DNA from: a virus
Lineage: Duplodnaviria > Caudoviricetes
Reading direction: 5' to 3' (one strand)
DNA: 61,160 bases
Virus record (IMG/VR): IMGVR_UViG_3300044491_002233
Location: 1 to 61,160 of that record
This document shows, piece after piece, positions 5,663-44,333 of this stretch. The notes under the pieces are model-generated. The model was given only the letters and a program-made list of their open reading frames with translations. It made no database searches and had not been told where the DNA came from. The translations under genes and the position numbers were made by a program. The first letter of the stretch is position 1. Each line of letters begins with the position of its first letter.

Positions 5663-6319
5663 TTATTTCTTCTTAAACACCACTTCTTTCTTTCGTGATC
5701 TGCCATACTCTGTATAGCCCAGTGTGTTTAATAATTCGATGATCTTCTTCCCCGCCTGTCTCTGGAGCTCGTTTTTGTGTTCGATCTCCACATTGAGCAC
5801 ACAATCGTTATCAAGCAGTGTTTGTTGTCCACCCAGCAGTATGTCGTATTCACTGCCTTGTGTGTCTATCTTTATTAGATCTACGTTCTTGAAATTGTAA
5901 TCGTCCAGTCTCTTTATTTCTAAAACTGATTCTTCCACTTGGTCTTCGAATACCTGATCCCTAAAGAAACTGTGTGCCCCGGATGTGGTCAATGACTTAT
6001 AGAATGTTTTGGTCTCTTGTTTCGAACCTAAGCCCACTTGGTGCAGGTCATAATTTTCTTTACCTGAAAGATTTGTCTCCAAACACTCTATGTTGGAGGC
6101 ATCTGGTTCGAATATAACCACGTTCTCAAATCTGTCACAGAAATCCCTGCTCCAAAATCCTATGTTTCCGCCTATGTCTATCGCTGTATGGAAGTTCTTG
6201 ACTTGGTGTAACGCATACTCTCTCTGAAGTCTTTGGTATGTTACCTCGTTGTTTATCTTCATCCACTCTTCGTAGTGTTGATCGTAATCTGGTAAAAACC
6301 AATCATGTACTTTACGCAT
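5663..6319 (-). CDS. FkbM-family methyltransferase
   Basis: AIDIGGNIG, FEP, LIKIDTQGSE; TAAATA at 6325-6330, 5 nt before ATG. Confidence 0.85.
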   Translation of the reverse strand: MRKVHDWFLPDYDQHYEEWMKINNEVTYQRLQREYALHQVKNFHTAIDIGGNIGFWSRDFCDRFENVVIFEPDASNIECLETNLSGKENYDLHQVGLGSKQETKTFYKSLTTSGAHSFFRDQVFEDQVEESVLEIKRLDDYNFKNVDLIKIDTQGSEYDILLGGQQTLLDNDCVLNVEIEHKNELQRQAGKKIIELLNTLGYTEYGRSRKKEVVFKKK

Positions 6320-6346: not shown

Positions 6347-7819
6347 TTACTGTTCTTCATCTGAGTGCAGTTCATTTAGAAGTTGTCTCAGTTTACCGCC
6401 TTCCACAGTAGCCTTAACCTTGACTCCTAACGCATCGCCTTTACGAGGATCCGGCACTTCTGGTCTAGCATCTGTGTCCGTGTTGCCCGTGACTTTGGAT
6501 GTCTGCTTCAATGAGTCATATATTTTATTCTTACCTTGCTGATTATAGCTCTGTGACTCGTCCTCGTCTAGACTTCTTATACGCAGACTGTCCACGTCAA
6601 ACTCGAGGTCTACTTTCTGTCCGACTCCCGAACTTGATCTGGTCTTCATGAACTGTATCTGGTATCTACCACGTTCCTTCATCGCCCGTGAAGTGAATAT
6701 ACCTATCACATTGTCCGCTGTCTGTATCTTGGATAGTCCGCCCGATATATGACTGTGATCAAACTCTATCTCCTCAACACTAGCCCTGTTCAACTGTGAT
6801 GCTGTAGCCAACACACACTGTTTCTCAACGACCAAGTTCCTCAGTTCCTCACTCACATACTTGTCTTTGATAAACAAGTCTGCTGGTGATATCCTTTTGC
6901 TCTTAGGCATCATCAGATCCAAGTAGTCAATCAGTATGCAGTCTATTTTCTTCTTGTTTTTCAGTTCTAGTTCCTTCAGATATGTTCTCACATCCAACAC
7001 GTTGCTACCACTCGGTAAGTATTTGATCTGCAGGTTACCTGATTTCTTTTTCAACATCTTGACCTTCATCTCAACGTTTTCTATTTCGGGAAATACTTTT
7101 CTTGTTGGAATATTTGTCATCATGGCATCCAATCTCATGGCAGTCAGTTGCTCGCTCAACTCAAATGATATGTAGCACACATTCAGTCCAGCCAGTGCCC
7201 AGTTGACCGCAAGATTCTGCAAGAACAAACTCTTACCTGCACCCGATCCACCTGCAAAGATGTTCAGCTCGCCTCTGTTGAATCCGCCAAACAGTTTCTT
7301 GTCCAAGTTGGCCCAACCTGTACTGATCTGTCCGTTGTTGTCTTTGAGTGCTTCAAGTCTTCCTTTTGGATCTTCGAAATAGTCCGTGCCGAGATCCCTT
7401 GTGAGGCCAACCTGTACTGCTTCCTTGACCATGTCCTCGACTGGACCATAGTCACCTCTCTCTAATAGATCAGCGGATGACAGTATTGCTTGTTCAAGTG
7501 CTTTGTGTCTACAAAATGTTTCAAACTCGTCCAGCAACCAATTGAAATGGCTTGGGTCCAGATCCTTCGCTGTTTTTAATTTTATATCGTGTGATGCATT
7601 GACTATGTCAACTTCTGGCATGACCTTGTACTCGTCCATGTAGTCTTTGACGAACTTGGCAATTGGTTGCAGTTTACGATCAAATGAATTAGGATTGAAT
7701 ATATTCTGTGCCCTCGCAAATGATTCAGCATCCGCCAACAACATTTCTATGTACAATTTCTGCACATCAAAAGAATAGTTCTTAGCCTGGTGTTGTTCGT
7801 TATTGTTATAGTCAGCCAT
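6347..7819 (-). CDS. gp41: Replicative DNA helicase (T4 gp41/DnaB-like)
   Basis: Walker A GGSGAGKS, ISFE, LIDYLD, ASQLNR, KTR. Confidence 0.92.
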   Translation of the reverse strand: MADYNNNEQHQAKNYSFDVQKLYIEMLLADAESFARAQNIFNPNSFDRKLQPIAKFVKDYMDEYKVMPEVDIVNASHDIKLKTAKDLDPSHFNWLLDEFETFCRHKALEQAILSSADLLERGDYGPVEDMVKEAVQVGLTRDLGTDYFEDPKGRLEALKDNNGQISTGWANLDKKLFGGFNRGELNIFAGGSGAGKSLFLQNLAVNWALAGLNVCYISFELSEQLTAMRLDAMMTNIPTRKVFPEIENVEMKVKMLKKKSGNLQIKYLPSGSNVLDVRTYLKELELKNKKKIDCILIDYLDLMMPKSKRISPADLFIKDKYVSEELRNLVVEKQCVLATASQLNRASVEEIEFDHSHISGGLSKIQTADNVIGIFTSRAMKERGRYQIQFMKTRSSSGVGQKVDLEFDVDSLRIRSLDEDESQSYNQQGKNKIYDSLKQTSKVTGNTDTDARPEVPDPRKGDALGVKVKATVEGGKLRQLLNELHSDEEQ

Positions 7820-8720
7820 TTTTTACTCCACATTTTATTTTACAACATTCGTGTGCAGAAGTAAATTGTTTTGTTGAATTAAAAAAATCTTTTATCTCGT
7901 TCCATTCCATTATGCTTTCGAGTGTGTTGTCTTTGATATTGAACATCTTTGTTTTTGGTGAGAACACACTTTTGTATTTGTAATGGTAACTCCCCATCCA
8001 ACAACAGGGATAGAAATCTCCTTCTGCGTCAATATACAGGTTATGTTGTGGTTTGTCATTTACCATACAGTTTGGTAATATTGATGTTGTAAATGTTGGA
8101 TCATCGAGAATCTCTTGTGATTGTTTGTATGACATGTCGACAAACTCCTCATCGGGCATTAGGTCTTTTTCTCCCAGCCATCTGTCGCTGTGTTCCAATC
8201 TAAACTGGTCAAACCCGATATTTTTTGAAAATGTTTCTGCGTCTTTTACTTGGTGTTGATTGTGTTTGAATACTATAAATTTCCATACCAGGGTACAACT
8301 CCCTGTTCTAACACATTCGACGGCATCCATTATGGATTTCCATTTTGCATTTTTCCTATACAAATGATTGGTGTCTTCTAGCCCGTCTATAGAAAATATT
8401 AGTGTGTCATTTTTATCTAGGATGTTTGATAATACTTGCCACCATTTTTTTGTCTTGGCAGAGCCATTTGTTGTAATATGTAGTCTACAGTTGTTGTCTT
8501 TTAATTGTTTGCACAATTCTAAAAAATTAGAATGATAAATTGGATCCCCATTATTACCACACATGTTTATCGTTGCATTTGGACCAACAAAGTTTACAAG
8601 ATGTTCGATGTTTATTTCGTGCAACAATCTTTTTTTAAATGTCTCGTAGAACCAAGTCCTTGAGCACAGAGGACATTCTAATGTGCATTTACTGGTTGGT
8701 TCGACATGAAAACTAACCAT
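7812..8720 (-). CDS. Radical SAM protein with twitch/SPASM-like C-terminus
   Basis: CTLECPLC (CxxxCxxC), TTNG, FSIDG, YIDAEGDFYPCC. Confidence 0.88.
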   Translation of the reverse strand: MVSFHVEPTSKCTLECPLCSRTWFYETFKKRLLHEINIEHLVNFVGPNATINMCGNNGDPIYHSNFLELCKQLKDNNCRLHITTNGSAKTKKWWQVLSNILDKNDTLIFSIDGLEDTNHLYRKNAKWKSIMDAVECVRTGSCTLVWKFIVFKHNQHQVKDAETFSKNIGFDQFRLEHSDRWLGEKDLMPDEEFVDMSYKQSQEILDDPTFTTSILPNCMVNDKPQHNLYIDAEGDFYPCCWMGSYHYKYKSVFSPKTKMFNIKDNTLESIMEWNEIKDFFNSTKQFTSAHECCKIKCGVKNG

Positions 8721-9726
8721 ACATTTTCCTTTTTAAATCTATTTTCAATTTACTTGACTCTGTTGTTTTCAGTATCGATTGTATAGTAAACAATCTGCCA
8801 TATTTCGACACAGCATCTGCCACATCACCCACAGTTTTATCCCATTCGGGAAATGCCACGCTCCACCCAAATTCTGTTGCCTGGTCCACTAACTTCTGTC
8901 CGGGAGCATCTCTGTCCGGAACAACAATAACTTGTCGACCAAGTCCGCCTATCAATTCTTTTTGCGTGTCATTTATTTCTGAACCCAATATGCTAACACC
9001 AGACACGGCTATGGCATCGAACGGTCCTTCGGTTACTATTACAAATTTTCTCGTCCAATCTTGTGCATCCATATTAAAAACATATCCGGGCCAAACGTCT
9101 GTGTAGTATTTTACTCCTTGTGATTCCTCGAACATCCTGCCCGTGAATCCAACCACTTCACCTCTCCAATAGAATGGTATCAGTAGCCTTTGATAGATGT
9201 CCCAGGTCTTGTCAGGCGAGTACATGAAGTCATACCAGTCGGCGCCTATGCCCCTGCTTTCCAAGTATTTTAGTAGTCCGTCGATCTTCTTCCATTGTGG
9301 TTCTGTGAGGTCGTTGCCCACGTACTTCTCTAGCCACACATCTAGTTTGTGTGTGTTCTTAGGCAGTGTCTTGTTTTTGAATGTTATGAATTTCTTCTTC
9401 TCGTACTTGACATCTCCTTCTTCCTCACGCATGGCCTCTATGGCCAACTTACGTATGGTGTCCTCAGGTATGCCTATGTAACTCATGAACTGCCGCATCT
9501 TGTAGGTCAGTTTACGTCCTATCACATAACTGGCCTTGAATCCACAGTTGAAACAGTGATAACTGACGGTACCATCCGCACTGGTCATCAGTCCCCCACG
9601 TTTCTTCTTGTCTGCAGTCTCTCCGTTGTACACACAACAGGGTGCGTTGAAACTAATCCATCCGCTAGGGGTTTTCTTTCTGTTCGCAGGTAGACTTGTC
9701 AGGATAGTAGATCCAATTAGATTCAT
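8713..9726 (-). CDS. gp61: DNA primase (T4 gp61-like)
   Basis: Zn ribbon (PCC...HCFNCG), FTGR, TOPRIM VTEGPFDA and PDRD. Confidence 0.88.
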   Translation of the reverse strand: MNLIGSTILTSLPANRKKTPSGWISFNAPCCVYNGETADKKKRGGLMTSADGTVSYHCFNCGFKASYVIGRKLTYKMRQFMSYIGIPEDTIRKLAIEAMREEEGDVKYEKKKFITFKNKTLPKNTHKLDVWLEKYVGNDLTEPQWKKIDGLLKYLESRGIGADWYDFMYSPDKTWDIYQRLLIPFYWRGEVVGFTGRMFEESQGVKYYTDVWPGYVFNMDAQDWTRKFVIVTEGPFDAIAVSGVSILGSEINDTQKELIGGLGRQVIVVPDRDAPGQKLVDQATEFGWSVAFPEWDKTVGDVADAVSKYGRLFTIQSILKTTESSKLKIDLKRKMYG

Positions 9727-9733
9727 AAACTAT

Positions 9734-9762
9734 ATTTTACTGTCTATATAAGATTTTGTCAA
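9734..9762 (-). promoter_or_regulatory. Sigma70-type promoter for the primase operon
   Basis: TTGACA-17nt-TAAAAT, 7 nt before ATG. Confidence 0.7.
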
Positions 9763-10540
9763 TGAGTCCGGTATTACCTGCGTCGTTGCCCCAACTAAAT
9801 CTGATATTTCTGAATATACCAGTGAAGTTGAAATTAGAGACAGCAGTCGATCCCGAGAAAGTATTAGTCACAGAGTTTTCACCGTCCATGGTGATATCAA
9901 ACCAATCAGTAGATCCGGGAGTGGCGCTCATTGTTCCCTGCACTCTTAATGATCCTGAAAAGTTTTTTGTATAGATCGCAATAGTGTGTAATGCTTTGTT
10001 GTTGTTTATACCTGGCCTCCCGTCGACAGACCCGGATGTTTTTGCCAGCGGACCCTGTGTTGATGTGAAACTGGTTACTTCGGTACTTGCGACAAATTCT
10101 GGATAAGCACCATCTAGCAACTCTATCGTGCCAGCGGCCGCATATCCCGTGTCAGCATATGTTATTTCCCTGCTACCGTCGGACTTGACTTCACGTACTG
10201 CGAAATTGTAGAATTTGGCCTCTAGAGGCAATAGGTCACCTTCGGTGATTGTAGCACGAGCATCTCCCTTGGTGCTCACTGTGGATCCGTCGTCTAAAAT
10301 AGATAAGGTCTTGGTCAAAACCGCTTTTTTAGATTCTGTATCTATGATATTGAATTCGTAGGTCTTGGAAGTGATATCCTGTGCCTTCTGATCCTCGTTT
10401 TTAAACGTGAATGTTATAGGATTTGACACACCCCTGTGCAGTGTTAGGCGTCTATCGTACACTTTCGAATTCCTCCCGTGATACCCATTTATATAGGCTA
10501 TTACCAATTGATTTAGTAAATACCTTGAAACTGTTTGCAT
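9737..10540 (-). CDS. Hypothetical beta-rich protein, possibly virion (BppU-N/Ig-like)
   Basis: Beta-strand-rich ORF; TAAATA 6 nt before ATG (10547-10552) and a second TATAAATA at 10557-10564. Confidence 0.5.
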   Translation of the reverse strand: MQTVSRYLLNQLVIAYINGYHGRNSKVYDRRLTLHRGVSNPITFTFKNEDQKAQDITSKTYEFNIIDTESKKAVLTKTLSILDDGSTVSTKGDARATITEGDLLPLEAKFYNFAVREVKSDGSREITYADTGYAAAGTIELLDGAYPEFVASTEVTSFTSTQGPLAKTSGSVDGRPGINNNKALHTIAIYTKNFSGSLRVQGTMSATPGSTDWFDITMDGENSVTNTFSGSTAVSNFNFTGIFRNIRFSWGNDAGNTGLIDKILYRQ

Positions 10541-10572
10541 AATACATATTTAACAGTATTTATAGATATAGA

Positions 10573-10947
10573 ATGAACGAAATTTTTAAAACATTAAGGG
10601 ACAATTTTCCTTTCTTAAGCCTCATTAGAAAAGGTGAGCTAGAGTATATTGGTATAGTACAGAATGAAGACTCTAATGTTATCAGTTTCTATGACTATGG
10701 CAGGTTAATGATGCCACAGGACAAGATGAAATTTTTAAAATGTGGAGAAACCTGGTGGCACGAATCTAACAGGAAATTACCAATCAATATCTTCCTAAAA
10801 GGAGACTTCCGTTATTTTCGATCAACATTAGTAAGTTTGAATGTAAAAGATGTTGAGATAGTAGAAGGCCCGACAGTTAAACTTTCCGAAATATCAAAGA
10901 AACGTGTGAAGCGTAGGACTATCCAATTGGTCCGAAAACCAGTCTAG
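10573..10947 (+). CDS. Hypothetical phage protein
   Basis: 124-aa ORF filling the gap between minus-strand genes. Confidence 0.65.
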   Translation: MNEIFKTLRDNFPFLSLIRKGELEYIGIVQNEDSNVISFYDYGRLMMPQDKMKFLKCGETWWHESNRKLPINIFLKGDFRYFRSTLVSLNVKDVEIVEGPTVKLSEISKKRVKRRTIQLVRKPV

Positions 10948-11099
10948 TTCTTTTCAGTACAGTTTATTCCATTAACTCTTTCCACATACTTGGTCAACGG
11001 ATTGTTTGCCTGGTACGATCCGAGCTCGGAACGAGTTGGACTGCGATGTTTTTTACTAGGATGTTTGGGTGTCTTTTTTTTAGGTTTTTGATGTAGCAT
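10944..11099 (-). CDS. Small basic hypothetical protein (51 aa; not in ORF track)
   Basis: Hand translation MLHQKPKKKTPKHPSKKHRSPT...CTEKN*; fills the gap; stop overlaps the convergent stop in CTAG. Confidence 0.5.
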   Translation of the reverse strand: MLHQKPKKKTPKHPSKKHRSPTRSELGSYQANNPLTKYVERVNGINCTEKN

Positions 11100-11670
11100 C
11101 AAAACTATATTTAGCTCTCGTGATCAGATTCATCTGTACCACTATGGCCTGTGCATAGGCTATAGCGTGTGATTTCTTGAAGAAGTATGAGCCGTCTGTG
11201 GGCTTTGTCCATACCTCCCGCATTATGTCCTGCCAGTCCTTGTACATCAACTGTCTTTTAGCGGGACGTATTATGGCCAACACAGCGGCCAGTTGCTCGA
11301 CGTTCCTTGGCTCCAGTTTAGACACTATGTTGAAGTGTCCGTTGAGGTGGAACAGGTTCTCTACGGTCTTTGGATCCTTCAGCATGTCCCAATCCGGTTC
11401 CTGTATCATAAGTTCCACTAGTTCCTGTTCTGACTTCACTTCCTTGTATATGTTTACATTCAACATGTCTATCTTAAAATATCCCCTGTCTTCGGCTTTC
11501 TTGTAGTCCAGCGATGAATTTCCTGTCACAGGATGTTCGGGAACAGCATGGAAGTAGACTCCTGTTTTATGTTTTTCTACTTTGCCATCTTTGATCATTG
11601 AAGCAGGTGTGTGCTTGAAAAGTTTTAGTGTGTTGTCTCTATCAAAGAAGTCTATGTCTACGTCAGGCAT
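11080..11670 (-). CDS. dnaE: Miniature DNA polymerase III alpha (family C) homologue
   Basis: PDVDIDF, KHKTGV, FKIDMLNV, LAIIRP and YFFKKSHAIAY occur in DnaE order within 196 aa. Confidence 0.8.
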   Translation of the reverse strand: MPDVDIDFFDRDNTLKLFKHTPASMIKDGKVEKHKTGVYFHAVPEHPVTGNSSLDYKKAEDRGYFKIDMLNVNIYKEVKSEQELVELMIQEPDWDMLKDPKTVENLFHLNGHFNIVSKLEPRNVEQLAAVLAIIRPAKRQLMYKDWQDIMREVWTKPTDGSYFFKKSHAIAYAQAIVVQMNLITRAKYSFDATSKT

Positions 11671-11903
11671 TAGTGCATACTCCCTTTACCCTTTTCGGCG
11701 TGTTGTATCATCTTGTCACGTGAGCCCGGTTGTAGCACTTCCAAAATATCTAACAGTTTTCTGTATCCTTCGGAATCAAGAACATTCCTGTTTATGTCTG
11801 GCATAATTACCCTTCCTATTGATCCGTCTTCTTTGATAACAACAGCACAATCACCATCATCGAAATCCAAATTATCTGCTATCTCTAGATCAATCTTAGA
11901 CAA
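11670..11903 (-). CDS. Hypothetical protein
   Basis: Overlaps both neighbours (TAATG with the mini-DnaE gene). Confidence 0.65.
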   Translation of the reverse strand: MSKIDLEIADNLDFDDGDCAVVIKEDGSIGRVIMPDINRNVLDSEGYRKLLDILEVLQPGSRDKMIQHAEKGKGSMH

Positions 11904-12579
11904 TCTTGGCCTCTCTTGCTGTGTCTTGTACCAACATGTGATCGGCCGGGTAGCTCTTCAACTTGCTAGGCCAGAAACTTGTGTTTATGAATCTTTCTAT
12001 CATTTGTAATTGTTCGTCGTTGAATGATTTTAACATCCTTTTGCCTGCACTGCAACCTAACAGCAACCATGGACTTATCTTGCCTTGTTGTATGTGTTGC
12101 ACCGCTCTGTTCTTGTTCACAAGTCTGAAGTAGTCGGGCCATTGTGCGTTCTGTTCCGTCGCCCAGTCCATCATTGTGGCTATGCTTCTCTGTAGTGCCG
12201 CCTCCACTGGTTCTGATTTCAGTGCTTCTATAAGATAGGTTTCGTACAAATCATCTCTAGACCAATGATCTAATTTAATCTTAGACCGGAGCACAAACTC
12301 TATATATTTCTCCGGATACAATGGGTTAATATGCATAATGAACCGACCAAACTTCACAAAGGCATTGTAGTATGGACTCTTAACAAAATCGTCGTATGTT
12401 TTTGTCTTTGAGTTGTGTTGGTGTATCTGATAGAATCTTTGGAATACCATGAATGCATTCACTACCCATTTCTCATCACGTTGTAGATATCTCCTCTTGG
12501 GTTCACACAAGTGAACTTGCAGTGTACGTTCCTTGGCAAATTCTTTGCTACAATATGTGCATTTATTTGTCGATGCCAT
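11896..12579 (-). CDS. Hypothetical protein with N-terminal Zn finger
   Basis: CTYC..F...TL..HLC motif; lies in the replication operon. Confidence 0.65.
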   Translation of the reverse strand: MASTNKCTYCSKEFAKERTLQVHLCEPKRRYLQRDEKWVVNAFMVFQRFYQIHQHNSKTKTYDDFVKSPYYNAFVKFGRFIMHINPLYPEKYIEFVLRSKIKLDHWSRDDLYETYLIEALKSEPVEAALQRSIATMMDWATEQNAQWPDYFRLVNKNRAVQHIQQGKISPWLLLGCSAGKRMLKSFNDEQLQMIERFINTSFWPSKLKSYPADHMLVQDTAREAKIV

Positions 12580-13018
12580 GTGCCTCTATCAGTTCTTCTA
12601 GTTCTCTGTCAGTTATCACTTTGTCTAGTGTCTCTAGGTCTGCTTCCTTCCATGTTGGGTATATGGTCTGTAGTTTTTTTAGGCTCTTGTTAGGCACACG
12701 CTTCATGGGTTTTAACCATGGATGGAACTGCTGTGTCTCTGCACCACACATGGCGGTCAGTATCCATAACAGTTTCTTGTGTTTGCCCAGTGTGAAGCAG
12801 TGTTTGTTCACACACTCATTGACCATCTCAATGTAGTGCTCCACGTAGAATGGATCCTTAGATGACACATTAGAAACATATCTCATCAGCATGTAGGGAG
12901 AATACAACGACTTCTCCTTGTCGTCGATTCTATCAAAATAGTCCTTATTTCTGAAGTCTACAGCCTTAAGTCCGTTTCTCAGATCAAAGAATTTCTTATT
13001 ACTTTTTTCTACTGGCAT
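12563..13018 (-). CDS. Probable clamp-loader small subunit (gp62-like)
   Basis: YSPYMLMRYVS...VNE and FHPWLK resemble gp62; size and context fit. Confidence 0.55.
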   Translation of the reverse strand: MPVEKSNKKFFDLRNGLKAVDFRNKDYFDRIDDKEKSLYSPYMLMRYVSNVSSKDPFYVEHYIEMVNECVNKHCFTLGKHKKLLWILTAMCGAETQQFHPWLKPMKRVPNKSLKKLQTIYPTWKEADLETLDKVITDRELEELIEAHGIDK

Positions 13019-13232
13019 ATTTCAATCCAAACATAGTGCATTCTTTTGCATCTACGAATGTTAATTTTATTTTCTTTTGCAAGTGATTCATAGCCGAAAT
13101 CTTGAATTTATTTTTCCCTAACCAATCAAAGAACTCTATCATCCAATTCTCGTCCATCCACACCGCGATCTTGTTGCTGGTAATCAATACAGGTGCGTCT
13201 ATGATTATAGTTCGTCTACCAGACTGAGCCAT
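12999..13232 (-). CDS. Hypothetical protein
   Basis: Overlaps both neighbours in the operon. Confidence 0.6.
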   Translation of the reverse strand: MAQSGRRTIIIDAPVLITSNKIAVWMDENWMIEFFDWLGKNKFKISAMNHLQKKIKLTFVDAKECTMFGLKYASRKK

Positions 13233-13719
13233 AGTCCACTTGCTCGCACTGCCTTGATATGTCCTTTACGAAATAGGCACACACGGGTCTACGTCCGTCG
13301 GTCAGTGGCACAGCCAACATCTGACCGGATTTGATCTTTGGGAAGTACCATTTCACTTCTGTGTAGATGTCTACCACGTCTATTGGATGGAAGTCGGGTT
13401 TAGGACTAGACAACGGATTGAATGTGAAAGCATCAAACCCCCTGTCGTTAAGACTCGTGATTGGTAACACGTGCATCTCAGACTGTCCTGCCTCACCTAT
13501 CAGCATCTTCCAATCTAGTGGCATCTTAATCCTGTGTTCTCCTATCTGTAGCACCGCCGCCGGTGCGTTGAAGCTCTCTAGGAATATCAATGGTATGTAG
13601 AAGAAATCTGGTTCAGCAGGATCTGAATTATCTAGTACTGCGAATCTTAGATTTTCATCTACCCATTCGGGTATCTTTTCTAGTTTATATGTTCTGTTAT
13701 CAAGTGTAAGGATTTTCAT
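13216..13719 (-). CDS. Hypothetical beta-rich phage protein
   Basis: 167-aa ORF coupled to uvsW. Confidence 0.65.
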   Translation of the reverse strand: MKILTLDNRTYKLEKIPEWVDENLRFAVLDNSDPAEPDFFYIPLIFLESFNAPAAVLQIGEHRIKMPLDWKMLIGEAGQSEMHVLPITSLNDRGFDAFTFNPLSSPKPDFHPIDVVDIYTEVKWYFPKIKSGQMLAVPLTDGRRPVCAYFVKDISRQCEQVDYGSVW

Positions 13720-15163
13720 AATTTATCTTTTCTATAGTATACGGGTAATTGGCCTCTTTGTAAAACTTTTTCCTTGCCCCCAAATGTCTTTTTGCAAACT
13801 TGCAACTGCTAGTAATGTCCCAGATCTGTACGCTGTCCTTGTCTTCCGCTTTCCTGATGCCACGACCTATGCTCTGTATGACCCTCACAAATGACTTCCC
13901 TGGCTCTATGAGAACAAGATTAAAAATCCTAGGAATATTAATACCAACAGCGGCCACTCCATATGTGGCGATAATAACTTTATTTGTTGCAGTAGATATT
14001 TCATCATATTGTTCTTTCCTGTCTGTGTTTTTTGTTGATCCGGACACGAATACAGCATCCTCGATTTGTTCTTCTAAAATCTCACCTGCAGATATCCTGT
14101 CTACAAGTATTAGTGTATTGCCCGAACCTGATATGTCTTTGATTGTGTTGGCCACCCACTTCATTCTGGTCTTGTCTGTGGTTAACCATTTTAGTTCCTC
14201 GCTATAGGTTTTGAACTGAGGATGATCTTGTGTCTGTAACACATTGACATGGCAATTAGCCAATACTCCTTTGTCTTGCAGTTCACTGGCTTGTATCCTG
14301 TTGGACACATCACCTATGCTACATTTTAGTCCCATAAATTCATAGTCTGCCTTTGGCACTGTTCCGGTCAAACCCCAACGTATGCCACAATGTGCGAATG
14401 GACCGGTCAACAATCTTTTCAACACATCTGCTTTGGCCATGTGCACCTCATCTATTATCACTGTGTTGATTCCTTGTATGGCTTCAAGAAAATCTGTGCT
14501 GTGTTCGTCTTTGCTTTTTTTTTCTAGCACGTTCAGTGACTGCCATGTTGCTATAGTGTTGAACCTGCCCAGTTCTTTTCTGTCTCCATAGTAAACGCCC
14601 ACGTCTAAGTTACAAGCCAGGAAGTCCTCCTCTGTCTGTGTCACGAGGCTCTTGTTGGGAACAATGGTCAGCGTTCTCCCATAAGGTTCGACTAATTGGC
14701 ATAGTGCCGCTGTGATTATGGTCTTACCCGCTCCTGTGGCTATCTCTTGTATGCTCTGTGGATGTTCTATAAACTTGTTTATTGTTTCCACTTGATAGTC
14801 TCTCAATTCAATTGGCTTTCCTGCCGCTGGATGGTTGTCCGGCCATTTTATATGTGACAGGTAATTTTTGTCTATTGCTTTGAATTCAAAATTGTGTTGT
14901 TTTCTTTTGTCTTCTACATCGATGTAAACTCCGCCTTCGTCTAATATGGGAAGTATCTGGTCCACTAGGTTTAGGTATGTGGTACCACCGAGCCCAAAGA
15001 AACTGACCTTACCGTCCCACCTGCCTAACTTGACTGCCGGAAGATGTCTAGCATATGGTATCTCGTATTTGAATTTGTTTGATAATCTCTTACGCCATTC
15101 GAGGCTCAGGTTCTCGAACTTCACATTCACTTCATCTTTTATTACTAATTTACAACTGCTCAT
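13700..15163 (-). CDS. uvsW: UvsW-like SF2 DNA helicase
   Basis: LRDYQ, ATGAGKT, DEVH, GLTGT, QSIGRGIR. Confidence 0.92.
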   Translation of the reverse strand: MSSCKLVIKDEVNVKFENLSLEWRKRLSNKFKYEIPYARHLPAVKLGRWDGKVSFFGLGGTTYLNLVDQILPILDEGGVYIDVEDKRKQHNFEFKAIDKNYLSHIKWPDNHPAAGKPIELRDYQVETINKFIEHPQSIQEIATGAGKTIITAALCQLVEPYGRTLTIVPNKSLVTQTEEDFLACNLDVGVYYGDRKELGRFNTIATWQSLNVLEKKSKDEHSTDFLEAIQGINTVIIDEVHMAKADVLKRLLTGPFAHCGIRWGLTGTVPKADYEFMGLKCSIGDVSNRIQASELQDKGVLANCHVNVLQTQDHPQFKTYSEELKWLTTDKTRMKWVANTIKDISGSGNTLILVDRISAGEILEEQIEDAVFVSGSTKNTDRKEQYDEISTATNKVIIATYGVAAVGINIPRIFNLVLIEPGKSFVRVIQSIGRGIRKAEDKDSVQIWDITSSCKFAKRHLGARKKFYKEANYPYTIEKINYENPYT

Positions 15164-25341: not shown

Positions 25342-26346
25342 ATGAAAATTTTTATAACAGGTATAGCAGGTTTTTTAGGTTCCCATCTAGCAGATTTAAT
25401 GATATCAGAAGGCCACACAGTTGCTGGCAATGACAACATGATTGGCGGATACGCCGACAATGTCCCCCAAAATGTAGAGTTCCATCAGGTGGATTGTTGT
25501 GATTTAGAAAACATGACCAAAGCCATGGAAGGCTGTGACATAGTTTACCATACTGCCGCAACGGCATACGAAGGTCTGTCTGTATTTTCTCCTGTGCTTG
25601 TCACAAGGAACATATTCGAAGCATCAGTCACAACTATTACAGCGGCTATAAGGAACAAGGTTAAACGTATTGTGTATTGTTCAAGCATGGCGAGATATGG
25701 CCAGCATGATCAAATGCCATACAAAGAAACATATGAATGTCGGCCACAGGATCCATATGGTATCGCAAAGAAAGCCGGTGAGGATGTATTAAAAAATTTA
25801 TGTGAGACTCATGGGGTTGAGTATGTAATTGCCGTACCACACAACATAGTTGGTCCAAGACAGAAGTACGATGACCCATTTAGGAATGTCATGTCCATTA
25901 TGTTGAACAGGATGTTACAAGGCAAACAACCTATCATATACGGAGACGGAGAGCAACAAAGATGTTTTAGTTACATAGATGATTGTTTGTACTGTTTAAA
26001 CGCACTAGCATTCCAAGACAATGTAGTCGGAGAAGTGATCAACATTGGACCAGACGAAGAACCCATAACGATCAATGAGCTAGCGGAGGCCTGTGCAAAT
26101 GAAACCGGACTTAACCTAGATCCTATACATCACAAAGACAGACCTAAAGAAGTTAAACTAGCAGTATGTTCATCAGACAAAGCAAGAGAATTATTAGGTT
26201 ACAACACGGCAACAAACATGCGGCAATCTGTTAAGAAAACAGCCGAGTACATAAGAACCAGAGGCACAAAAAAATTTCAATATCATTTGCCATTAGAAAT
26301 TATAAACGAACAAACACCCGATACTTGGAAGAACAAATTGATATGA
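25342..26346 (+). CDS. NAD-dependent nucleotide-sugar epimerase/dehydratase
   Basis: TGIAGFLG, CSS, YGIAK (YxxxK), NIVGP, RCFSYIDD. Confidence 0.92.
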   Translation: MKIFITGIAGFLGSHLADLMISEGHTVAGNDNMIGGYADNVPQNVEFHQVDCCDLENMTKAMEGCDIVYHTAATAYEGLSVFSPVLVTRNIFEASVTTITAAIRNKVKRIVYCSSMARYGQHDQMPYKETYECRPQDPYGIAKKAGEDVLKNLCETHGVEYVIAVPHNIVGPRQKYDDPFRNVMSIMLNRMLQGKQPIIYGDGEQQRCFSYIDDCLYCLNALAFQDNVVGEVINIGPDEEPITINELAEACANETGLNLDPIHHKDRPKEVKLAVCSSDKARELLGYNTATNMRQSVKKTAEYIRTRGTKKFQYHLPLEIINEQTPDTWKNKLI

Positions 26347-27053
26347 TTTCATTTTGTTGTCCGTCACGAGGCAGACCTGAATTGGCAAAAAGACTAGTCG
26401 ACACTGCTACCGCAACACAAAAACACGATACAGAATTTTTATTCTATCTCAATAATGATGATGAGAAATTAGAAGAATACAAAGATTTACTAGACGAAAA
26501 ATATTATACAGTAGGACCAAATCAATCTACTTGTTACAGTTGGAACTTGATGAGTGATAAAGCCTCACACGATATCGTTATGCTCATGGGAGATGACGTG
26601 CAAGTACAAACACAAGACTGGGATCAGATAATTGCAGACGAAATAAACAAATACAAAGATAAGATTTTAATGGTAGTGCCGAGTGATGGCAGGACCAAAG
26701 GAAACAAAAATTTTGGAGATCATCCAATGTTATGGAGAGATAAACCACTGCCGGCGGCACATTTCGCAGTCCATAAGAACTGGATTAATACGCTGGGCTA
26801 TCTGGCACCGGTGTACTTCTGGCATTGGCATGTGGATTCTTATACCCAGAAAGTTGCACGTAAACTGAATAGATGTCTTTACCTACCAACAGTAGAATTT
26901 AAGGCAAAAAAAATACTCAATGACAATGCAGGCCAGCAGATAAGGGGTAATTTAAATATTGCAAAACGTGACGAGTTTGTTTGGACCAAGGTGCGTGACA
27001 GGCATATGAATGCTGACATTGCCGCGTTAAGATCTTTTATCGAATCTTTCTAA
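26343..27053 (+). CDS. GT2-like glycosyltransferase
   Basis: ISFCCPSRGRP, SWN, LMGDD; ATGA overlap start. Confidence 0.7.
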   Translation: MISFCCPSRGRPELAKRLVDTATATQKHDTEFLFYLNNDDEKLEEYKDLLDEKYYTVGPNQSTCYSWNLMSDKASHDIVMLMGDDVQVQTQDWDQIIADEINKYKDKILMVVPSDGRTKGNKNFGDHPMLWRDKPLPAAHFAVHKNWINTLGYLAPVYFWHWHVDSYTQKVARKLNRCLYLPTVEFKAKKILNDNAGQQIRGNLNIAKRDEFVWTKVRDRHMNADIAALRSFIESF

Positions 27054-29209: not shown

Positions 29210-29435
29210 CTTCGCCGTATCCGTCTGACTCTTCGTCTTCCTCGAACACAGTGTTGATTGCTTCTTCTAATTTGGGATCGAATTCGGCTGACGCTTTGAT
29301 CTCGTCATGTTCAACACCAATATCCTCTAGGCTCTTAATGAAGTCTATGGCACAATCCAATTTCTGTCTCTCTGGAACGTAGTGTACAATGGAGTTCCAT
29401 AATCTTTCTATATCCTCGTGTGTAAAGTCTATCAT
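29202..29435 (-). CDS. Acidic hypothetical protein
   Basis: Coupled between uvsX and uvsY. Confidence 0.65.
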   Translation of the reverse strand: MIDFTHEDIERLWNSIVHYVPERQKLDCAIDFIKSLEDIGVEHDEIKASAEFDPKLEEAINTVFEEDEESDGYGEDD

Positions 29436-30529
29436 TACTCTTCTTTTTTACTTTTTGTTTTTGTTTCTACTTCGATGGGAGCGTCAATATCTTCTACCTC
29501 TTCTACAAGTGTTTCGTCTTTGAACTCTCTCATTATCATATCTAATTTATCACCGGTCCATTGTTTTCTGAAGTCAATGTGTTCTTTTCCTTTAGAATCA
29601 ATATACTTCAATCTGTTTCCTGTTTGTACTAGCAAACCTTTTTTTTCAAACAACTCAACTAGACCACTGTATGGATCCATTCCGGTGTCATAAGGTATCT
29701 TGACTTGCACACCTTCAAACGGTTTAGCATATCTAGTTTTCATAACTTTACAGGCGGCTCTTATACCTCTCACATCTGAAACTTTATTTCCTGCTTCGTC
29801 TTCTTTTAATTTTAATTTCTTCATTGCAACAACAATAGAACTTGCATAGATAAATCCTTGTCCGCCTGATATCTTGTCATCTGGATCAAACATATCTTGT
29901 GATGCATATGTGTGGTTGGTTGCTATAAGGCCCACGTTCCAACTACCAAACATGTTTACACAGTTTCTCACAAGTGCCGTTAGTGCTTTAGGTTTTCTAC
30001 CCAAATCGCCTTTCATGTCACCCGCTTCGAACTGATTCACGTCTGTTGGAGTAAGCATCATGCCCAGACTGTCTATAACGAACAGTACCTTAGGTGCGCC
30101 TTCTTTGTTGTCTGCGTGTTGTTCTTTGTAACCTTTCATAAACTCTGAAACAGTTTTCGCAACATCATCGACCATTGACATGCTCAATTTTAAAAGTTTG
30201 TCTTCTGATGTGTCCACTTTCAATGCTTGTAACCATTTCTCATCTAGTGCATTCTCTGTGTCGATCAAGATAACAAAGATGCCTTGCTCTTGTGCATTCT
30301 TGATTATGTTGCCTGATGCTATGTAACTCTTGCCTGCCCCTGATTCACCTGCAAGTACAGTCACTTTGCCTAATGGAATTCCTTTGTTGAAGTCACTGGT
30401 CATTAAATAGTTTAATGCGTAATTTCCTGTGCTAATCCAATCTGTGGGATCGCTGAAACCAATGCCTAGTCCTTGTATAGACTTTGTGATACTCTTTCTA
30501 AATTTTGTTGCGTCAAACACTTTTGTCAT
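29435..30529 (-). CDS. uvsX: RecA-like recombinase UvsX
   Basis: GESGAGKS, IDTE, VIDSLG, ISGG, KTR; SD-supported start MTKVF at 30529. Confidence 0.92.
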   Translation of the reverse strand: MTKVFDATKFRKSITKSIQGLGIGFSDPTDWISTGNYALNYLMTSDFNKGIPLGKVTVLAGESGAGKSYIASGNIIKNAQEQGIFVILIDTENALDEKWLQALKVDTSEDKLLKLSMSMVDDVAKTVSEFMKGYKEQHADNKEGAPKVLFVIDSLGMMLTPTDVNQFEAGDMKGDLGRKPKALTALVRNCVNMFGSWNVGLIATNHTYASQDMFDPDDKISGGQGFIYASSIVVAMKKLKLKEDEAGNKVSDVRGIRAACKVMKTRYAKPFEGVQVKIPYDTGMDPYSGLVELFEKKGLLVQTGNRLKYIDSKGKEHIDFRKQWTGDKLDMIMREFKDETLVEEVEDIDAPIEVETKTKSKKEE

Positions 30530-30540
30530 TTTTGTTTTCC

Positions 30541-30639
30541 TTATAATACTATCCAAAGTATAATCGCTACAATCAATACCCATGCAGGTATTTGTTTGTA
30601 CAAGATCCATTCGATAGCCTTTTGTATTTTCTTTTTCAT
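30541..30639 (-). CDS. 32-aa single-pass membrane protein (not in ORF track)
   Basis: MKKKIQKAIEWILYKQIPAWVLIVAIILWIVL*; ATG 6 nt after a -10; stop merges with the uvsX SD. Confidence 0.6.
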   Translation of the reverse strand: MKKKIQKAIEWILYKQIPAWVLIVAIILWIVL

Positions 30640-30699: not shown

Positions 30700-31704
30700 T
30701 TATTTTGCTTGTCTTGATCTAATCAACTTCAAGATGTCTTCTGCTCTCTTGGCGCTGTCACCTGCAGGTGCCGCCGTTGCCGGAGCCGCCTCAGGTTGTG
30801 GTGCTGGTGCACTTTCAGTAACCGGAGCCGCTTCTGCCATTGGTGTTGCCGCTTCTGCCATTGGTGTTGCCGCCGGAGCCGATGCTGTTGGCACTGCTAC
30901 CTGTGGTTTACCTTGGTAAGCCACGCCTGCTGGTCTGAAGTATTGTCCGTACTGCTCGAGATCATACGCCTCACCTTCAACAGATTTCGCAAATAATTCT
31001 GCAATTATTTTAACTTCTGCTTCGGTTGGCTCTTTTGGTCTGAAGTCACCTAGGTTATGTAGCCCATGCGTATCAATTGCGGCTCTTTCTGCCTCATCTA
31101 ATGCACGTTCTCTTCTTGACCATTTTGATGTTGAGTAGTCAGCATAACCACCTTTAGTTGTTTTAGTAATCCTAAAATCAACACCTTTCACATAATCAGT
31201 TGGCAGTTCTTCCATTTCTGGATCCATCAATGCTCCTCTGATAATGTTGAAGATCTGAGGTCCAATAATAAATCTTCTGATTGGATTCTCAGGTGTTGAG
31301 TCCTCTGCTAACGGATTTGTTGTAACAAAACCTTGGAAAATATAACTTTTCTTTTTCCAATATTTCCTGCCCATATCTTCCATGCTCTTGTCTTTGAACC
31401 ATGGTCTGACTTCTGTCAGTACTGGACAAGTCTTGCCATACATTTCCATGCAAGGAACTTGCACTGTAACTGGTCTAGAATCAGTCTGACCTTTGATACC
31501 TGCGAAAGGTAATTTGATCATGTTTCTTTCAGTCCAGAAAAAAGTATTGTTTGTGTCCTTGTCTGGTAGGAACCTGACCACTGCTTCTGAGCCTTCTGCT
31601 ATGTTCCAGTGTGGGTAGATGGCGTTGTCTCCGCCTGTTTGTGAAGTTGAGCGATTAACTTCTTGTGATTTTAACTTCGCTCTTATTTCAGCTAATGATG
31701 CCAT
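30700..31704 (-). CDS. gp32: Single-stranded DNA-binding protein (gp32-like)
   Basis: AVVRFLP, C...G..CPV, K..Y..V..NP, G.DF.I.K...GYADY..SKW; SD AAGGAGG. Confidence 0.88.
   Translation of the reverse strand: MASLAEIRAKLKSQEVNRSTSQTGGDNAIYPHWNIAEGSEAVVRFLPDKDTNNTFFWTERNMIKLPFAGIKGQTDSRPVTVQVPCMEMYGKTCPVLTEVRPWFKDKSMEDMGRKYWKKKSYIFQGFVTTNPLAEDSTPENPIRRFIIGPQIFNIIRGALMDPEMEELPTDYVKGVDFRITKTTKGGYADYSTSKWSRRERALDEAERAAIDTHGLHNLGDFRPKEPTEAEVKIIAELFAKSVEGEAYDLEQYGQYFRPAGVAYQGKPQVAVPTASAPAATPMAEAATPMAEAAPVTESAPAPQPEAAPATAAPAGDSAKRAEDILKLIRSRQAK
30827..30873. repeat. 21-bp in-frame tandem repeat in the gp32 linker
   Basis: gccgcttctgccattggtgtt x2 plus partial copy (TPMAEAA). Confidence 0.9.
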
Positions 31705-33876: not shown

Positions 33877-35469
33877 TTATCCTGTGAACGAACCAAATAT
33901 AGGCATTGGCGTTATCTCAGCAGTTCTGTCTGTCCATTTCTCGAATATTTTAGGATCAAAATCTGCTAAAACTTTCATCATACGAGTCATTAGTAAGCAA
34001 GAACTTACTAAATCATCATGTTGTCCAGGCTTTGCTTTATAACTTAATCCACTAGCAACGAAATCTTTCATCTCTGAAATCAATAGTTGTGAGTTTATTT
34101 TAATTTTCCCACCTTCGACTAGTTCTTTGAATTTTGTGCAGGCATCGATCTTGTGTTTTGCGGTAGTATTGAACCCTCTCCTAAATTTACGCCTATGCCC
34201 TTTTCTGATCGGTTCGGATAGGAACATGCCCATAATGTTCTCCTCACCTATGTCCATCACTCTCATCAGAGCGGCCTCACCTATGGAGTTGTTCTCCATG
34301 CTGTAGAATATCTGCGGCGTTGCTGTAGAATCCTTTTCCATGATCGTGTCGTGGATGTGTTTGGTAATTCCTTGCAAGATTCTAATTTGTTGATTCATAG
34401 GAGTCATGTTGTGATGCCATTCGCCTATTTGTTCGAATGTAGGCAATTCAAAAATTTGTATTGCGGCAAAGTCGCCTCCTGTTCCCATTGCAGGATCTAA
34501 AGATACCATGTATGTGTGTCCTGGGGTAGGTCTCTTGAACCATCGCACTTGTCCTGTTGTCTCTATTGGTGCCGTGCCTTCTAGGTCAGCGAGATATATG
34601 CTGTCAATCAAGGTCTCGTCAAAGATCAAGAATTCACACTCGTGTTCCCTTCGGAACCGCTCCTCACCTATCCTGGAACGTTCTGCGTCTGCCCATGCAT
34701 TGTCTCTGTCAGGGTGTTCTGACCAGTGTGCCTTCATGGCATAGAAACCGTTTGTGCCGATTACCTTGTCATTGCCGTACTCATCGAATCTCTTGTTAGC
34801 CTCTTTCCAGATCATGGCAAACTGGTCCTCGTCACTGTTTGGTGTTGATGTGATCATACATTTACCACCTGTACTAAGTGTTGGTGACAGTGATGTCCAG
34901 AATTCTTTGGCCTTTTCTGGTGGTTGCACGAATGCAAACTCATCACAATATATTAATGTAAGTGACATACCCCGTCCCGTGTTCTCTGTCGTTGTTGTGG
35001 CCATTATTTTTGAGCCATTGTCAAACTCTATGCTGTTCCTGTTGTACTGTGTCACACCTGCCTTGATCCAACTGGGCAACATCTCATAGGCGTAACGCAC
35101 CCTTGACATGATGTCCGATGCTCCTGCGTATTTGTGTGCCGCGATCAGTATCTGTGAATCAGGTCTGAACATGGCATACCAGATAAGGAATCCTGACGCA
35201 CAGGTTGTTTTACCTGTTTGCCTAGGAAGCATTGCTATTGAAAATCTATGATCGTTATAACTTTCAATCAGTCTTTCTTGATATGGGAATGGTTCGAATG
35301 GTATGGATCCTTTGACAGGGTGTTGTATTCTCATAAATGTTTTCATGAAGAACAAGGGACCGGTTTTTGGATCCATGCATTTCTCAAGTTGTTCCACTTG
35401 AGTTTTGCTGTATTTGTGTTTCTTATGCGCCTTCTTAATTTGGTCGCTATCTAATGATACATACGCCAT
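33877..35469 (-). CDS. gp17: Terminase large subunit
   Basis: YQ, PRQTGKTT, YCDEFAF, TSTPN, LDPA.G.GGD, HDDLV; TAAATA 7 nt before ATG. Confidence 0.95.
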   Translation of the reverse strand: MAYVSLDSDQIKKAHKKHKYSKTQVEQLEKCMDPKTGPLFFMKTFMRIQHPVKGSIPFEPFPYQERLIESYNDHRFSIAMLPRQTGKTTCASGFLIWYAMFRPDSQILIAAHKYAGASDIMSRVRYAYEMLPSWIKAGVTQYNRNSIEFDNGSKIMATTTTENTGRGMSLTLIYCDEFAFVQPPEKAKEFWTSLSPTLSTGGKCMITSTPNSDEDQFAMIWKEANKRFDEYGNDKVIGTNGFYAMKAHWSEHPDRDNAWADAERSRIGEERFRREHECEFLIFDETLIDSIYLADLEGTAPIETTGQVRWFKRPTPGHTYMVSLDPAMGTGGDFAAIQIFELPTFEQIGEWHHNMTPMNQQIRILQGITKHIHDTIMEKDSTATPQIFYSMENNSIGEAALMRVMDIGEENIMGMFLSEPIRKGHRRKFRRGFNTTAKHKIDACTKFKELVEGGKIKINSQLLISEMKDFVASGLSYKAKPGQHDDLVSSCLLMTRMMKVLADFDPKIFEKWTDRTAEITPMPIFGSFTG

Positions 35470-39777: not shown

Positions 39778-40398
39778 TTAACCACCAGTACTTAGAGTAC
39801 CGAGTGTTCTAGATACCGCTGTACCAATTCCTGTTCCTGTTGGAGTCTGGATTGCGTTGTCGTATCTGATTGACATAGTGATAGTTGCTGGATCTGAAGT
39901 TGCGTATGCAAGTGAGTTGTAGTTAACGTTCTCAACGTATGCACCGTACAATTCAAATGTTTCTAAAACATTTGGTGCACTCGCTCCGTTACCACCGTCT
40001 AGCATTTCAATTCTAGTTGTGAATTTGTAATCAATACCAGATGCCGCTGAACTCTGTTCAAAGAAATCGAATTGCTTCTGGATCTGTTCGCCAACCAGTT
40101 TAGTGACTGAGTTGTTAACGTCATCTCTTAGAGTGATTGTGATTGCTTCCCAAGTGTGTTTACCTGCCACATAAACTTTTGAGTTGTACACATCCAGTGT
40201 TACGGTGTCAAAAGATAATTGTGGTCTTGTTATATCAATAACTTGTTTTGTAAGTTCTGATCTCGGTGTTGATACTCCAAAATTTTCCAGGATCGCTCTG
40301 AAACGATACTGTAGTTTCGGCATCAATAATCCCTGTGATGCTGAACTCTGATCGTTTGCTAAAGGTACTGTGAATTTTGATAAAGTTGATATTGCCAT
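39778..40398 (-). CDS. gp19: Tail tube protein
   Basis: YVAGKHTWEAITITLRDD, FELYGAY; follows sheath; SD AGGAG and TAAATA at 40413-40418. Confidence 0.85.
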   Translation of the reverse strand: MAISTLSKFTVPLANDQSSASQGLLMPKLQYRFRAILENFGVSTPRSELTKQVIDITRPQLSFDTVTLDVYNSKVYVAGKHTWEAITITLRDDVNNSVTKLVGEQIQKQFDFFEQSSAASGIDYKFTTRIEMLDGGNGASAPNVLETFELYGAYVENVNYNSLAYATSDPATITMSIRYDNAIQTPTGTGIGTAVSRTLGTLSTGG

Positions 40399-43973: not shown

Positions 43974-44333
43974 ATGAATTATTCAACAAGACCGCTGTGC
44001 GTACACTGTAAATCCAAACCCAGGGCATATGCCTACAAGAGGAATGACAAAATTTATTGGCGTAGGTTGTGTGACACATGTAATCGTAGGAAGGCCAAAA
44101 AAAATGTTGGGGGGATCACTGCCTTGCAACGATCCGGATACAAGAAAAAATCTAAATGTGAATTGTGTGGTTACAAGGCCCAAGAACTTGCACAGATGGA
44201 CGTATTTTTCGTCGATGGTGATCTACGTAATGTGAAACCTACTAATCTAAAAACTGTTTGCGCCAATTGCCAGAGGTTGCAAGGTATCAGACGTCTCGGA
44301 TGGCGTGTTGGTGATCTTGTTGCTGACGATTAA
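43974..44333 (+). CDS. Zn-binding HNH-like protein lacking the catalytic His
   Basis: Four CxxC; DVFFVDGD..N....NL..VCANC; TAAATA 6 nt before ATG. Confidence 0.65.
   Translation: MNYSTRPLCVHCKSKPRAYAYKRNDKIYWRRLCDTCNRRKAKKNVGGITALQRSGYKKKSKCELCGYKAQELAQMDVFFVDGDLRNVKPTNLKTVCANCQRLQGIRRLGWRVGDLVADD

Follow-up and report, generated by a model that had tools for sequence, protein, structure and literature searches.

What does a phage do with 196 amino acids of a family C DNA polymerase? The question is raised by a gene on the minus strand at positions 11080-11670 of IMG/VR virus record IMGVR_UViG_3300044491_002233, the whole of which (61,160 bases; completeness 17% by the CheckV estimate) was analyzed here and is referred to as the window. 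An initial annotation, made from the letters of the window alone, had taken the gene product for a polymerase pared down around its catalytic aspartates and had offered two readings of it: a self-sufficient minimal nucleotidyltransferase with a new role, or one subunit of a split enzyme completed by the small proteins encoded next to it. We consider it likely that the gene encodes the C-terminal unit (C-unit) of a much reduced family C (DnaE-type) polymerase that consists of two chains and is typical of group 2.2 (RaK2/PA5oct/Atu_ph07-like) jumbo phages; the other chain, the N-terminal unit (N-unit), is encoded in relatives at a distant locus. The data presented below document homology, fold, residue conservation, purifying selection, a complementary N-unit in relatives and naturally fused forms of the two units.

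The C-unit is a condensed version of DnaE residues 400-781

The gene is an ATG-started open reading frame (ORF) for 196 amino acids, read from position 11670 down to 11080, and its translation contains, in order, the motifs PDVDIDF (residues 2-8), KHKTGV (33-38), KIDML (66-70), AIIRP (132-136) and FKKSHAIAY (164-172). The A of its ATG (11670-11668) is the last letter of the TAA of a 77-residue ORF (11670-11903), giving TAATG on the minus strand, and a GGGAG stands 9 nucleotides 5' of the ATG. The ORF, the motifs and the TAATG start listed in the initial annotation are borne out by translation and sequence, and a promoter and terminator scan of 10500-12100 returned nothing above shuffled expectation. 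The features of the gene are as follows.

11080-11670, minus strand: coding sequence (CDS) of the C-unit, the C-terminal, Mg2+- and template-binding unit of a split minimal DNA polymerase III alpha (Pol III alpha), 196 amino acids; identified from the ORF, phrog_11778, a profile match, an AlphaFold2 model and its VIA-align alignments
11650-11664, minus strand: codons of D3-V-D5-I-D7, the DxD strand (equivalents of E. coli D401/D403/D405); D3 and D5 invariant and D7 at least 90% conserved in 85 sequences, with residue 1 of the model on E. coli residue 400
11467-11475, minus strand: codons of K66-I-D68, with the third catalytic carboxylate (E. coli K553/D555); placed by hidden Markov model (HMM) alignment to 2hnh, K66 and D68 invariant
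11263-11268, minus strand: codons of R135-P136 in AIIRP (E. coli R639-P640, fingers); placed by HMM alignment, P136 invariant and R135 at least 90% conserved
11167-11181, minus strand: codons of F164-K-K-S-H168 in FKKSH (E. coli F756-N-K-S-H760); placed by a second HMM stretch in which residues 153-179 equal 742-769, K165 and H168 at least 90% conserved

Among the PHROGs families, phrog_11778 ('DNA polymerase', profile length 197) matches the C-unit with an E-value of 2.4e-67. A phmmer search of the PDB with the single sequence gave only chance triosephosphate isomerase rows (E>=0.078), and megablast of window positions 9000-15000 against a phage collection found no match. In an alignment of the window protein with 84 full-length representatives of 30-50% identity (85 sequences), D3, D5, K66, D68 and P136 are invariant, while D7, A23, H34, G37, P44, W94, P121, A128, I134, R135, K138, K165, H168 and A173 are conserved in at least 90% of the sequences. 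The profile of this alignment matched E. coli Pol III alpha (2hnh) in the PDB at E 1.2e-5, with Pol III alpha making up nine of the 11 PDB sequences listed, and placed KIDML on K553-F-D555-F-L, AIIRP on ALFRP (636-640) and FKKSHAIAYA on FNKSHSAAYA (756-765).

An AlphaFold2 model of the C-unit built from the 85-sequence alignment has a mean predicted local distance difference test score (pLDDT) of 96.8 and a predicted template modelling score of 0.89. Family C polymerases occupy all of ranks 1-17 in a Foldseek search with this model (best E 1.1e-3) as well as the top 14 rows obtained with VIA-align (Z 9.5 to 5.9), where the first unrelated row has a Z of 3.3. The best VIA-align rows are 3e0d_A (Z 9.5 over 188 residues, root-mean-square deviation 3.9), PolC 3f2b (Z 9.4) and E. 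coli 2hnh (Z 8.8); on the last of these, model residues 1-189 correspond to chain residues 400-781. Because the profile match and the Foldseek and VIA-align results all point to family C, we conclude that the C-unit is a condensed DnaE 400-781 that retains the aspartate-bearing palm strands, a thumb remnant and part of the fingers. The structure predicted for the chain alone is thus in line with the family C assignment of the initial annotation. So is the absence of the PHP, HhH, clamp-binding and OB regions, which follows from the length of 196 amino acids and the aligned range of 400-781. Held against a full-length DnaE or PolC, the C-unit has no single-chain complete palm, no PHP or HhH region, no beta-clamp motif and no OB fold.

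The gene is widespread and under purifying selection

Of the 4561 candidates of 107-343 amino acids that a word-indexed protein search with the C-unit examined, 4541 matched at E<=0.001; the best 120 of the 4541 are 84-96% identical to it and nearly all are exactly 196 amino acids long. When 1.84 billion representatives were searched exhaustively with HMMER, 454 clusters, defined at 50% identity, passed E<=0.001; 299 of them passed <=1e-10 and 75 passed <=1e-30. IMG/VR contains at least 568 C-unit loci, the best 80 of which are 87-97% identical to the protein of the window. These 80 and the window gene gave 81 CDS (73 of 591 and 8 of 588 nucleotides) from which we estimated the ratio of nonsynonymous to synonymous substitution rates (dN/dS). 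D3, D5, D7, K66 and D68 are present in 73 of 73 close CDS of equal length. Nei-Gojobori dN/dS against the window gene was computable for 62 of 72 pairs, dS being saturated in the other 10, and has a median of 0.035 (range 0.016-0.067).

These data bear on the possibility that a full-length dnaE was once captured from a host and that the gene is its decaying fragment or its non-catalytic relic, a view with which the remaining length of about one sixth of DnaE and the lack of a Pfam-level match would agree. The low dN/dS and the kept catalytic residues exclude such decay, and the existence of 4541 homologues of similar length in 454 clusters, together with a synteny that is kept across phages of different host classes, also speaks against it; we hold this explanation to be extremely improbable. 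Two claims of the initial annotation are upheld on the same grounds, namely that the gene is not decaying and that it retains all of its catalytic aspartates, with D3, D5 and D68 found in 85 of 85 diverse sequences and in 73 of 73 close relatives.

Among 50,697 phage records searched by tblastn, the C-unit matched 96, every one a jumbo phage and every one below 60% identity. Identity is highest for Atu_ph07 (55%, a maximum that holds within this collection, which may omit records of the window's own genome or very near ones), followed by Sinorhizobium phage Phosso (53%), PA5oct and its relatives (50%), XacN1/Xoo-sp13 (44-45%) and RaK2/K64-1/GAP32/CBB (37%). For the largest cluster of marine jumbo phages, Weinheimer & Aylward (2022) report PF07733 at a frequency of 51.9%. 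The matched records carry annotations as varied as 'DNA polymerase', 'DnaE-like DNA polymerase III alpha', 'hypothetical' and 'putative membrane protein'. In Atu_ph07, whose C-unit occupies 8001-8567 of the extracted locus, the RefSeq CDS begins at locus position 8073 and the tblastn match, which includes the DxD strand, begins at 8001; the catalytic N-terminus is thus probably cut off in the annotation.

The other half of the palm is encoded by a remote gene in relatives

The core motif of Pol-beta-like nucleotidyltransferases consists of hG[GS], followed by [DE]x[DE] and then by a third carboxylate. DxD and the third aspartate are on the C-unit, and G[GS] is found solely on the separate N-unit. 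In Atu_ph07 and Phosso, PF07733 scores over its cut-off at loci remote from the C-unit, in ORFs of 177 amino acids whose C-terminal part reads ...GVGRGS[SC]V[AS]SY...LDF[SD]EFL[EN]-stop. IMG/VR contains at least 575 N-unit loci. The end of the chain is fixed: 81 of 82 N-unit ORFs stop at ...F[LIM][KRE] at the same aligned position, the remaining one being interrupted by a contig end, and G142-V-G-R-G-S147 is invariant in 56 aligned N-units.

N-unit residues 97-175 align to positions 313-391 of TIGR00594 with an E-value of 3.5e-9, far under the whole-protein cut-off, as expected of a fragment. An AlphaFold2 model of an N-unit (locus L134:2986-3513) has a pLDDT of 88.6 and finds family C polymerases at Foldseek ranks 1-14 (E 0.03-0.7). 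Its residues 75-176 superimpose on E. coli DnaE 277/279-393 with Z 10.2-10.9, the next unrelated row being at Z 2.1, and the comparison with M. tuberculosis DnaE1 gives Z 12.5. By their aligned ranges on E. coli DnaE, the N-unit (ending at 393) and the C-unit (beginning at 400) abut. In E. coli DnaE the sequence equivalent to the N-unit continues via a short linker into PDFDVDF, which places the split point behind the GS loop and its adjoining helix and ahead of the DxD strand. A second-look fold comparison gave no match for the first ~74 residues of the N-unit, a part that it barely tests; these residues form a small alpha/beta domain in the model, and some of the contacts with the C-unit in the complex described below are theirs.

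The two units occur together across genera. A tblastn search with the Atu_ph07 N-unit matched 136 phage records, including weak partial matches to the full-size DnaE of unrelated phages (of Streptomyces, Enterococcus, Bacteroides and Clostridium). Counted by genus, N-unit and C-unit tallies are 34/34 for Escherichia, 11/11 for Pseudomonas, 8/8 for Erwinia, 8/8 for Salmonella, 4/4 for Xanthomonas and 10/11 for Klebsiella. Two IMG/VR contigs also carry both units, with ~44 kb between them on G001 (137 kb) and ~84 kb on G006 (228 kb). In named phages the distance from N-unit to C-unit is as follows.

Xoo-sp13: ~14 kb
RaK2: ~33 kb
CBB: ~33 kb
PA5oct: ~43 kb
Atu_ph07: ~182 kb
Phosso: ~224 kb

The two units complement each other in a complex model and are occasionally fused in nature

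We modelled a complex of the window C-unit (85-sequence alignment) and the marine N-unit L134 (with its own N-unit alignment), the latter, from the most abundant marine clade, picked as the probable cognate. The complex reached an ipSAE of 0.90 in three of three runs, versus 0.00 for the best of three controls, with 172-174 contacts, at least 95% contact agreement between runs and a partner pLDDT of 85-86. In calibration, 58 of 80 solved complexes attained the ipSAE mark, as did 2 of 110 mismatched pairs; these counts hold only roughly here because the alignments were user-supplied. The confident part of the modelled interface includes C-unit residues 2-9, which form the DxD strand, and N-unit residues 137-150, which form the GS loop. 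Since both chains are halves of a fold that has been solved as one chain in DnaE, the pass may reflect memory, and what the model indicates is a DnaE-like complementarity of the halves rather than binding.

Natural fusions provide independent support for the pairing. Three proteins from ENA and Logan assemblies, P0187 (375 amino acids), P0272 and P0273 (376 amino acids each), are 78-81% identical to one another and contain, in a single frame, an N-unit, a conserved 10-residue linker region (EFIKD..EG.YNIAD) and a C-unit. No relatives of these fused forms were found in IMG/VR. A fourth candidate, P0271 (350 amino acids), stands on a single 2-kb contig and starts with ~230 unrelated residues, and is probably an assembly chimera. 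Joining of the two chains by an intein or by trans-splicing was also rejected, both units being too short for intein halves and ending or beginning at DnaE-homologous residues.

Could the C-unit nonetheless act alone, its 196 amino acids carrying out primer extension, terminal addition or synthesis of a signal nucleotide? All three carboxylates are invariant, the lone chain folds with high predicted confidence (pLDDT 96.8) and no partner gene is present within the window, each of which is what a self-sufficient enzyme would lead one to expect. The chain begins, however, at the DxD strand and is devoid of the triphosphate-binding G[GS] loop and helix, which are on the N-unit; the N-unit co-occurs with it across genera and is fused to it in some natural forms; and the predicted interface buries the aspartate-bearing residues 2-9. 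We therefore think it very unlikely that the C-unit is self-sufficient, and this part of the initial annotation is set aside, since half of the palm resides on a separate chain. Roles in signal synthesis or terminal addition, also put forward there, have no support.

A number of observations weigh against the two-chain polymerase that we favor. At the level of curated families, Pfam run on the C-unit alone yields DNA_pol3_finger at E 0.014, under its cut-off, and a likewise sub-threshold DUF7739, and the cut-offs of PF07733 and TIGR00594 are not reached, there being no PF07733 match in the window and no NCBIfam match for the C-unit. No Foldseek E-value for the C-unit model reaches 0.001. The thumb and fingers are drastically cut, ~380 residues of DnaE mapping to 190, and because of this shortening neither stable primer-template binding nor processive synthesis is assured. 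With regard to the partner, tblastn of the window with the N-units of Atu_ph07 and Phosso had no match at an E-value under 1.2, and PF07733 yielded no candidate there. In one test only one of five long N-unit contigs also had a C-unit, the other four being fragments of 18-40% completeness. Three long N-unit contigs (G002-G004) compared with the window showed only a few weak protein matches, no DNA match and no overlap; no N-unit contig could be linked to the window in this way, and L134, itself from another contig, is therefore a probable cognate and no more. Finally, the 61-kb window contains no PF00136 match that would indicate a family B polymerase. PF00136 scores over its cut-off in four of four relatives that have both units, so the look-up proposed by the initial annotation turns out negative for the window and positive for its relatives. 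Because the contig represents ~17% of the genome and has neither gene, N-unit and family B polymerase are only inferred for the window's phage.

Genomic neighborhood and phage context

Around the C-unit the window contains the following genes.

6347-7819, minus strand: DnaB-like helicase (PHROGs)
7812-8720, minus strand: radical-SAM-like protein (PHROGs)
8713-9726, minus strand: DNA primase (PHROGs)
9737-10540, minus strand: virion structural protein
10573-10947, plus strand: 124-residue ORF, phrog_11637, convergent 3' neighbor of the C-unit, which it adjoins in four of four relatives at 33-47% identity
11670-11903, minus strand: 77-residue ORF whose TAA overlaps the C-unit ATG; lineage-specific, with no Pfam or PHROG match
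11896-12579, minus strand: 227-residue ORF, phrog_11058, with a weak N-terminal C2H2-like zinc finger; adjoins the C-unit in four of four relatives
12563-13018, minus strand: 151-residue ORF
12999-13232, minus strand: second 77-residue ORF
13216-13719, minus strand: 167-residue ORF
13700-15163, minus strand: superfamily 2 (SF2) DNA helicase, phrog_16, 52-55% identical to the helicases 5' of the C-unit in Atu_ph07 and Phosso

The order of the replication genes around the C-unit, from the SF2 helicase on one side to primase, radical-SAM-like protein and DnaB-like helicase on the other, is also that of Atu_ph07 and Phosso, and such a location suits a role in the replisome. Conservation of the neighbors was assessed at four more distant relatives, the loci of Atu_ph07, Phosso, G001 and G006. 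The 227-residue and 124-residue proteins adjoin the C-unit at all four, and the TAATG junction would couple translation of the C-unit to that of the 77-residue ORF. Both facts lend some appeal to the proposal that the C-unit strictly requires as partners the small proteins encoded on either side (11670-13018 and 10573-10947), whether in place of the N-unit or together with it. Yet Pfam, PHROGs, NCBIfam and Atlas reveal no DnaE likeness in any neighbor, Atlas look-ups of the 227-residue and 124-residue proteins returning phage hypothetical clusters only; the coupled 77-residue ORF is not conserved beyond the close clade, with no tblastn homologue at E<=1e-3 beside the C-unit at any of the four loci; and the missing half of the palm is fully covered by the N-unit, DnaE 279-393 abutting 400-781. 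Obligatory partnership of the flanking proteins is in our judgment unlikely. The initial annotation was thus right in seeing one half of a split enzyme and wrong in seeking the other half among the 11670-13018 neighbors, since these are without DnaE likeness, the 77-residue ORF has no detectable counterpart beside the gene in the four relatives and the N-unit lies 14-224 kb away in phages that encode both. The 227-residue and 124-residue neighbors may nevertheless assist the mini-polymerase, or the replisome, as accessory proteins.

Beyond the genes listed above (DnaB, primase and SF2 helicase), the contig encodes a T4-like core.

29435-30610, minus strand: UvsX-like recombinase
30700-31704, minus strand: gp32-like single-stranded DNA-binding protein
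33877-35469, minus strand: large terminase (TerL)
39778-40398, minus strand: tail tube
40427-43858, minus strand: tail sheath, 1143 amino acids

Judged by this gene content and by sequence similarity, the window's phage fits a group 2.2-type jumbo phage, with Atu_ph07, Phosso and PA5oct as the closest phage records; its source lineage is uncultured and probably marine.

Other regions of the window merit brief description. The radical-SAM-like gene (7812-8720, minus strand) is wedged between the DnaB and primase genes, and a methyltransferase (5663-6319, minus strand), a nucleotide-sugar epimerase and a glycosyltransferase (25342-27053, plus strand) and a deoxynucleoside monophosphate kinase (44247-44900, minus strand) are encoded elsewhere. 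Together these genes hint at DNA or nucleotide modification in the window's phage. Between 15166 and 23183, on the minus strand, lie eight co-directional ORFs of 257-448 amino acids, seven of which are without a PHROG match at E<=1e-5; within this stretch, the ORF at 17046-17840 matches only a PHROG family of unknown function.

A proposed two-chain polymerase

On the two-chain reading, the C-unit would supply the strands with the metal-binding carboxylates D3, D5 and D68, a much reduced thumb and the part of the fingers that carries AIIRP and FKKSH, and the N-unit, ~175 amino acids from a remote gene, would supply the GVGRGS triphosphate/nucleotide-binding loop and its helix, equivalent to DnaE ~279-393. 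Most likely the two chains would dock, no splicing being involved, and the DxD strand would pair beside the GS loop to form one Pol-beta-like nucleotidyltransferase active site. The resulting non-covalent core of ~370 residues may copy DNA without proofreading, clamp-binding or OB domains, and may work beside the phage family B polymerase, with primer extension, one-strand synthesis or repair among its conceivable tasks. That the window's phage has an N-unit, that the chains bind each other and that the pair has template-dependent DNA polymerase activity are three separate points which we infer.

Firmicutes divide replication between DnaE and PolC, and DnaE in PolC-using bacteria serves as a model for the extension of primase products. 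By analogy, the mini Pol III might be a dedicated primer-extension polymerase that elongates the RNA primers of the primase and hands them to a T4-like family B polymerase, and not a back-up enzyme, an idea that we put forward as speculative and rather doubtful. If it were true, the phage would have a viral counterpart of the Firmicutes DnaE/PolC division of labor, activity would need expression of both genes, and the fused lineage of 375-376 amino acids would be the simplest natural single-chain core of a family C polymerase. A two-chain core of ~370 residues whose chains meet at the active site would in turn be the smallest known family C enzyme and a tractable model for the minimal needs of palm, thumb and fingers. 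Our literature searches turned up no family member that has been tested biochemically or genetically; the term 'DNA polymerase' is absent from the main text of the PA5oct omics paper, and DNA polymerase goes unmentioned in a 2026 jumbo-phage review.

Comparison with known systems

Iyer et al. (2021, Viruses 13:63, PMC7824862) described from sequence a minimal Pol III alpha of group 2.2 jumbo phages that is split into an N-terminal unit for nucleoside triphosphate binding and a C-terminal unit for Mg2+ and template binding, encoded by distant genes beside a family B polymerase. They place the T4-like jumbo phage Atu_ph07 in group 2.2, suggest repair, or joint work with the family B polymerase on one of the strands, as the role of the split enzyme, and propose, a point on which the mini Pol III bears, that such forms resemble ancestral Pol III. 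The window gene resembles the C-terminal unit described there in being a stand-alone protein of ~190 amino acids with Mg2+-binding strands, a template-binding part and no other Pol III domains, and its relatives resemble the described phages in having the N-unit on a distant gene and a family B polymerase. It differs from those members in that the copy is uncultured, is at most 55% identical to anything in the phage collection and comes from a contig outside which the N-unit and the family B polymerase must be sought. The novelty that the initial annotation had seen in the protein does not stand, given that the family is present both in Iyer et al. (2021), in its sections on these genes, and in PHROGs (phrog_11778); the window's gene is a strongly conserved member of a described family and not a new enzyme class. 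Relative to those sections, our additions are the fixed break between ...EFL[KR] and M-x-D-x-D, its mapping to DnaE 393|400, the modelled heterodimer and the fused lineage, some of which may already be partly known.

Set beside bacterial DnaE and PolC (2hnh, 3e0d, 5lew, 3f2b), the C-unit is unlike these enzymes in being devoid of PHP, HhH, beta-clamp motif, OB fold and tau-binding domain and in belonging to a palm that is spread over two polypeptides, and it is like them in its palm/fingers fold, in the triad equivalent to D401/D403/D555 and in the K-x-D, RP and F-x-K-S-H motifs.

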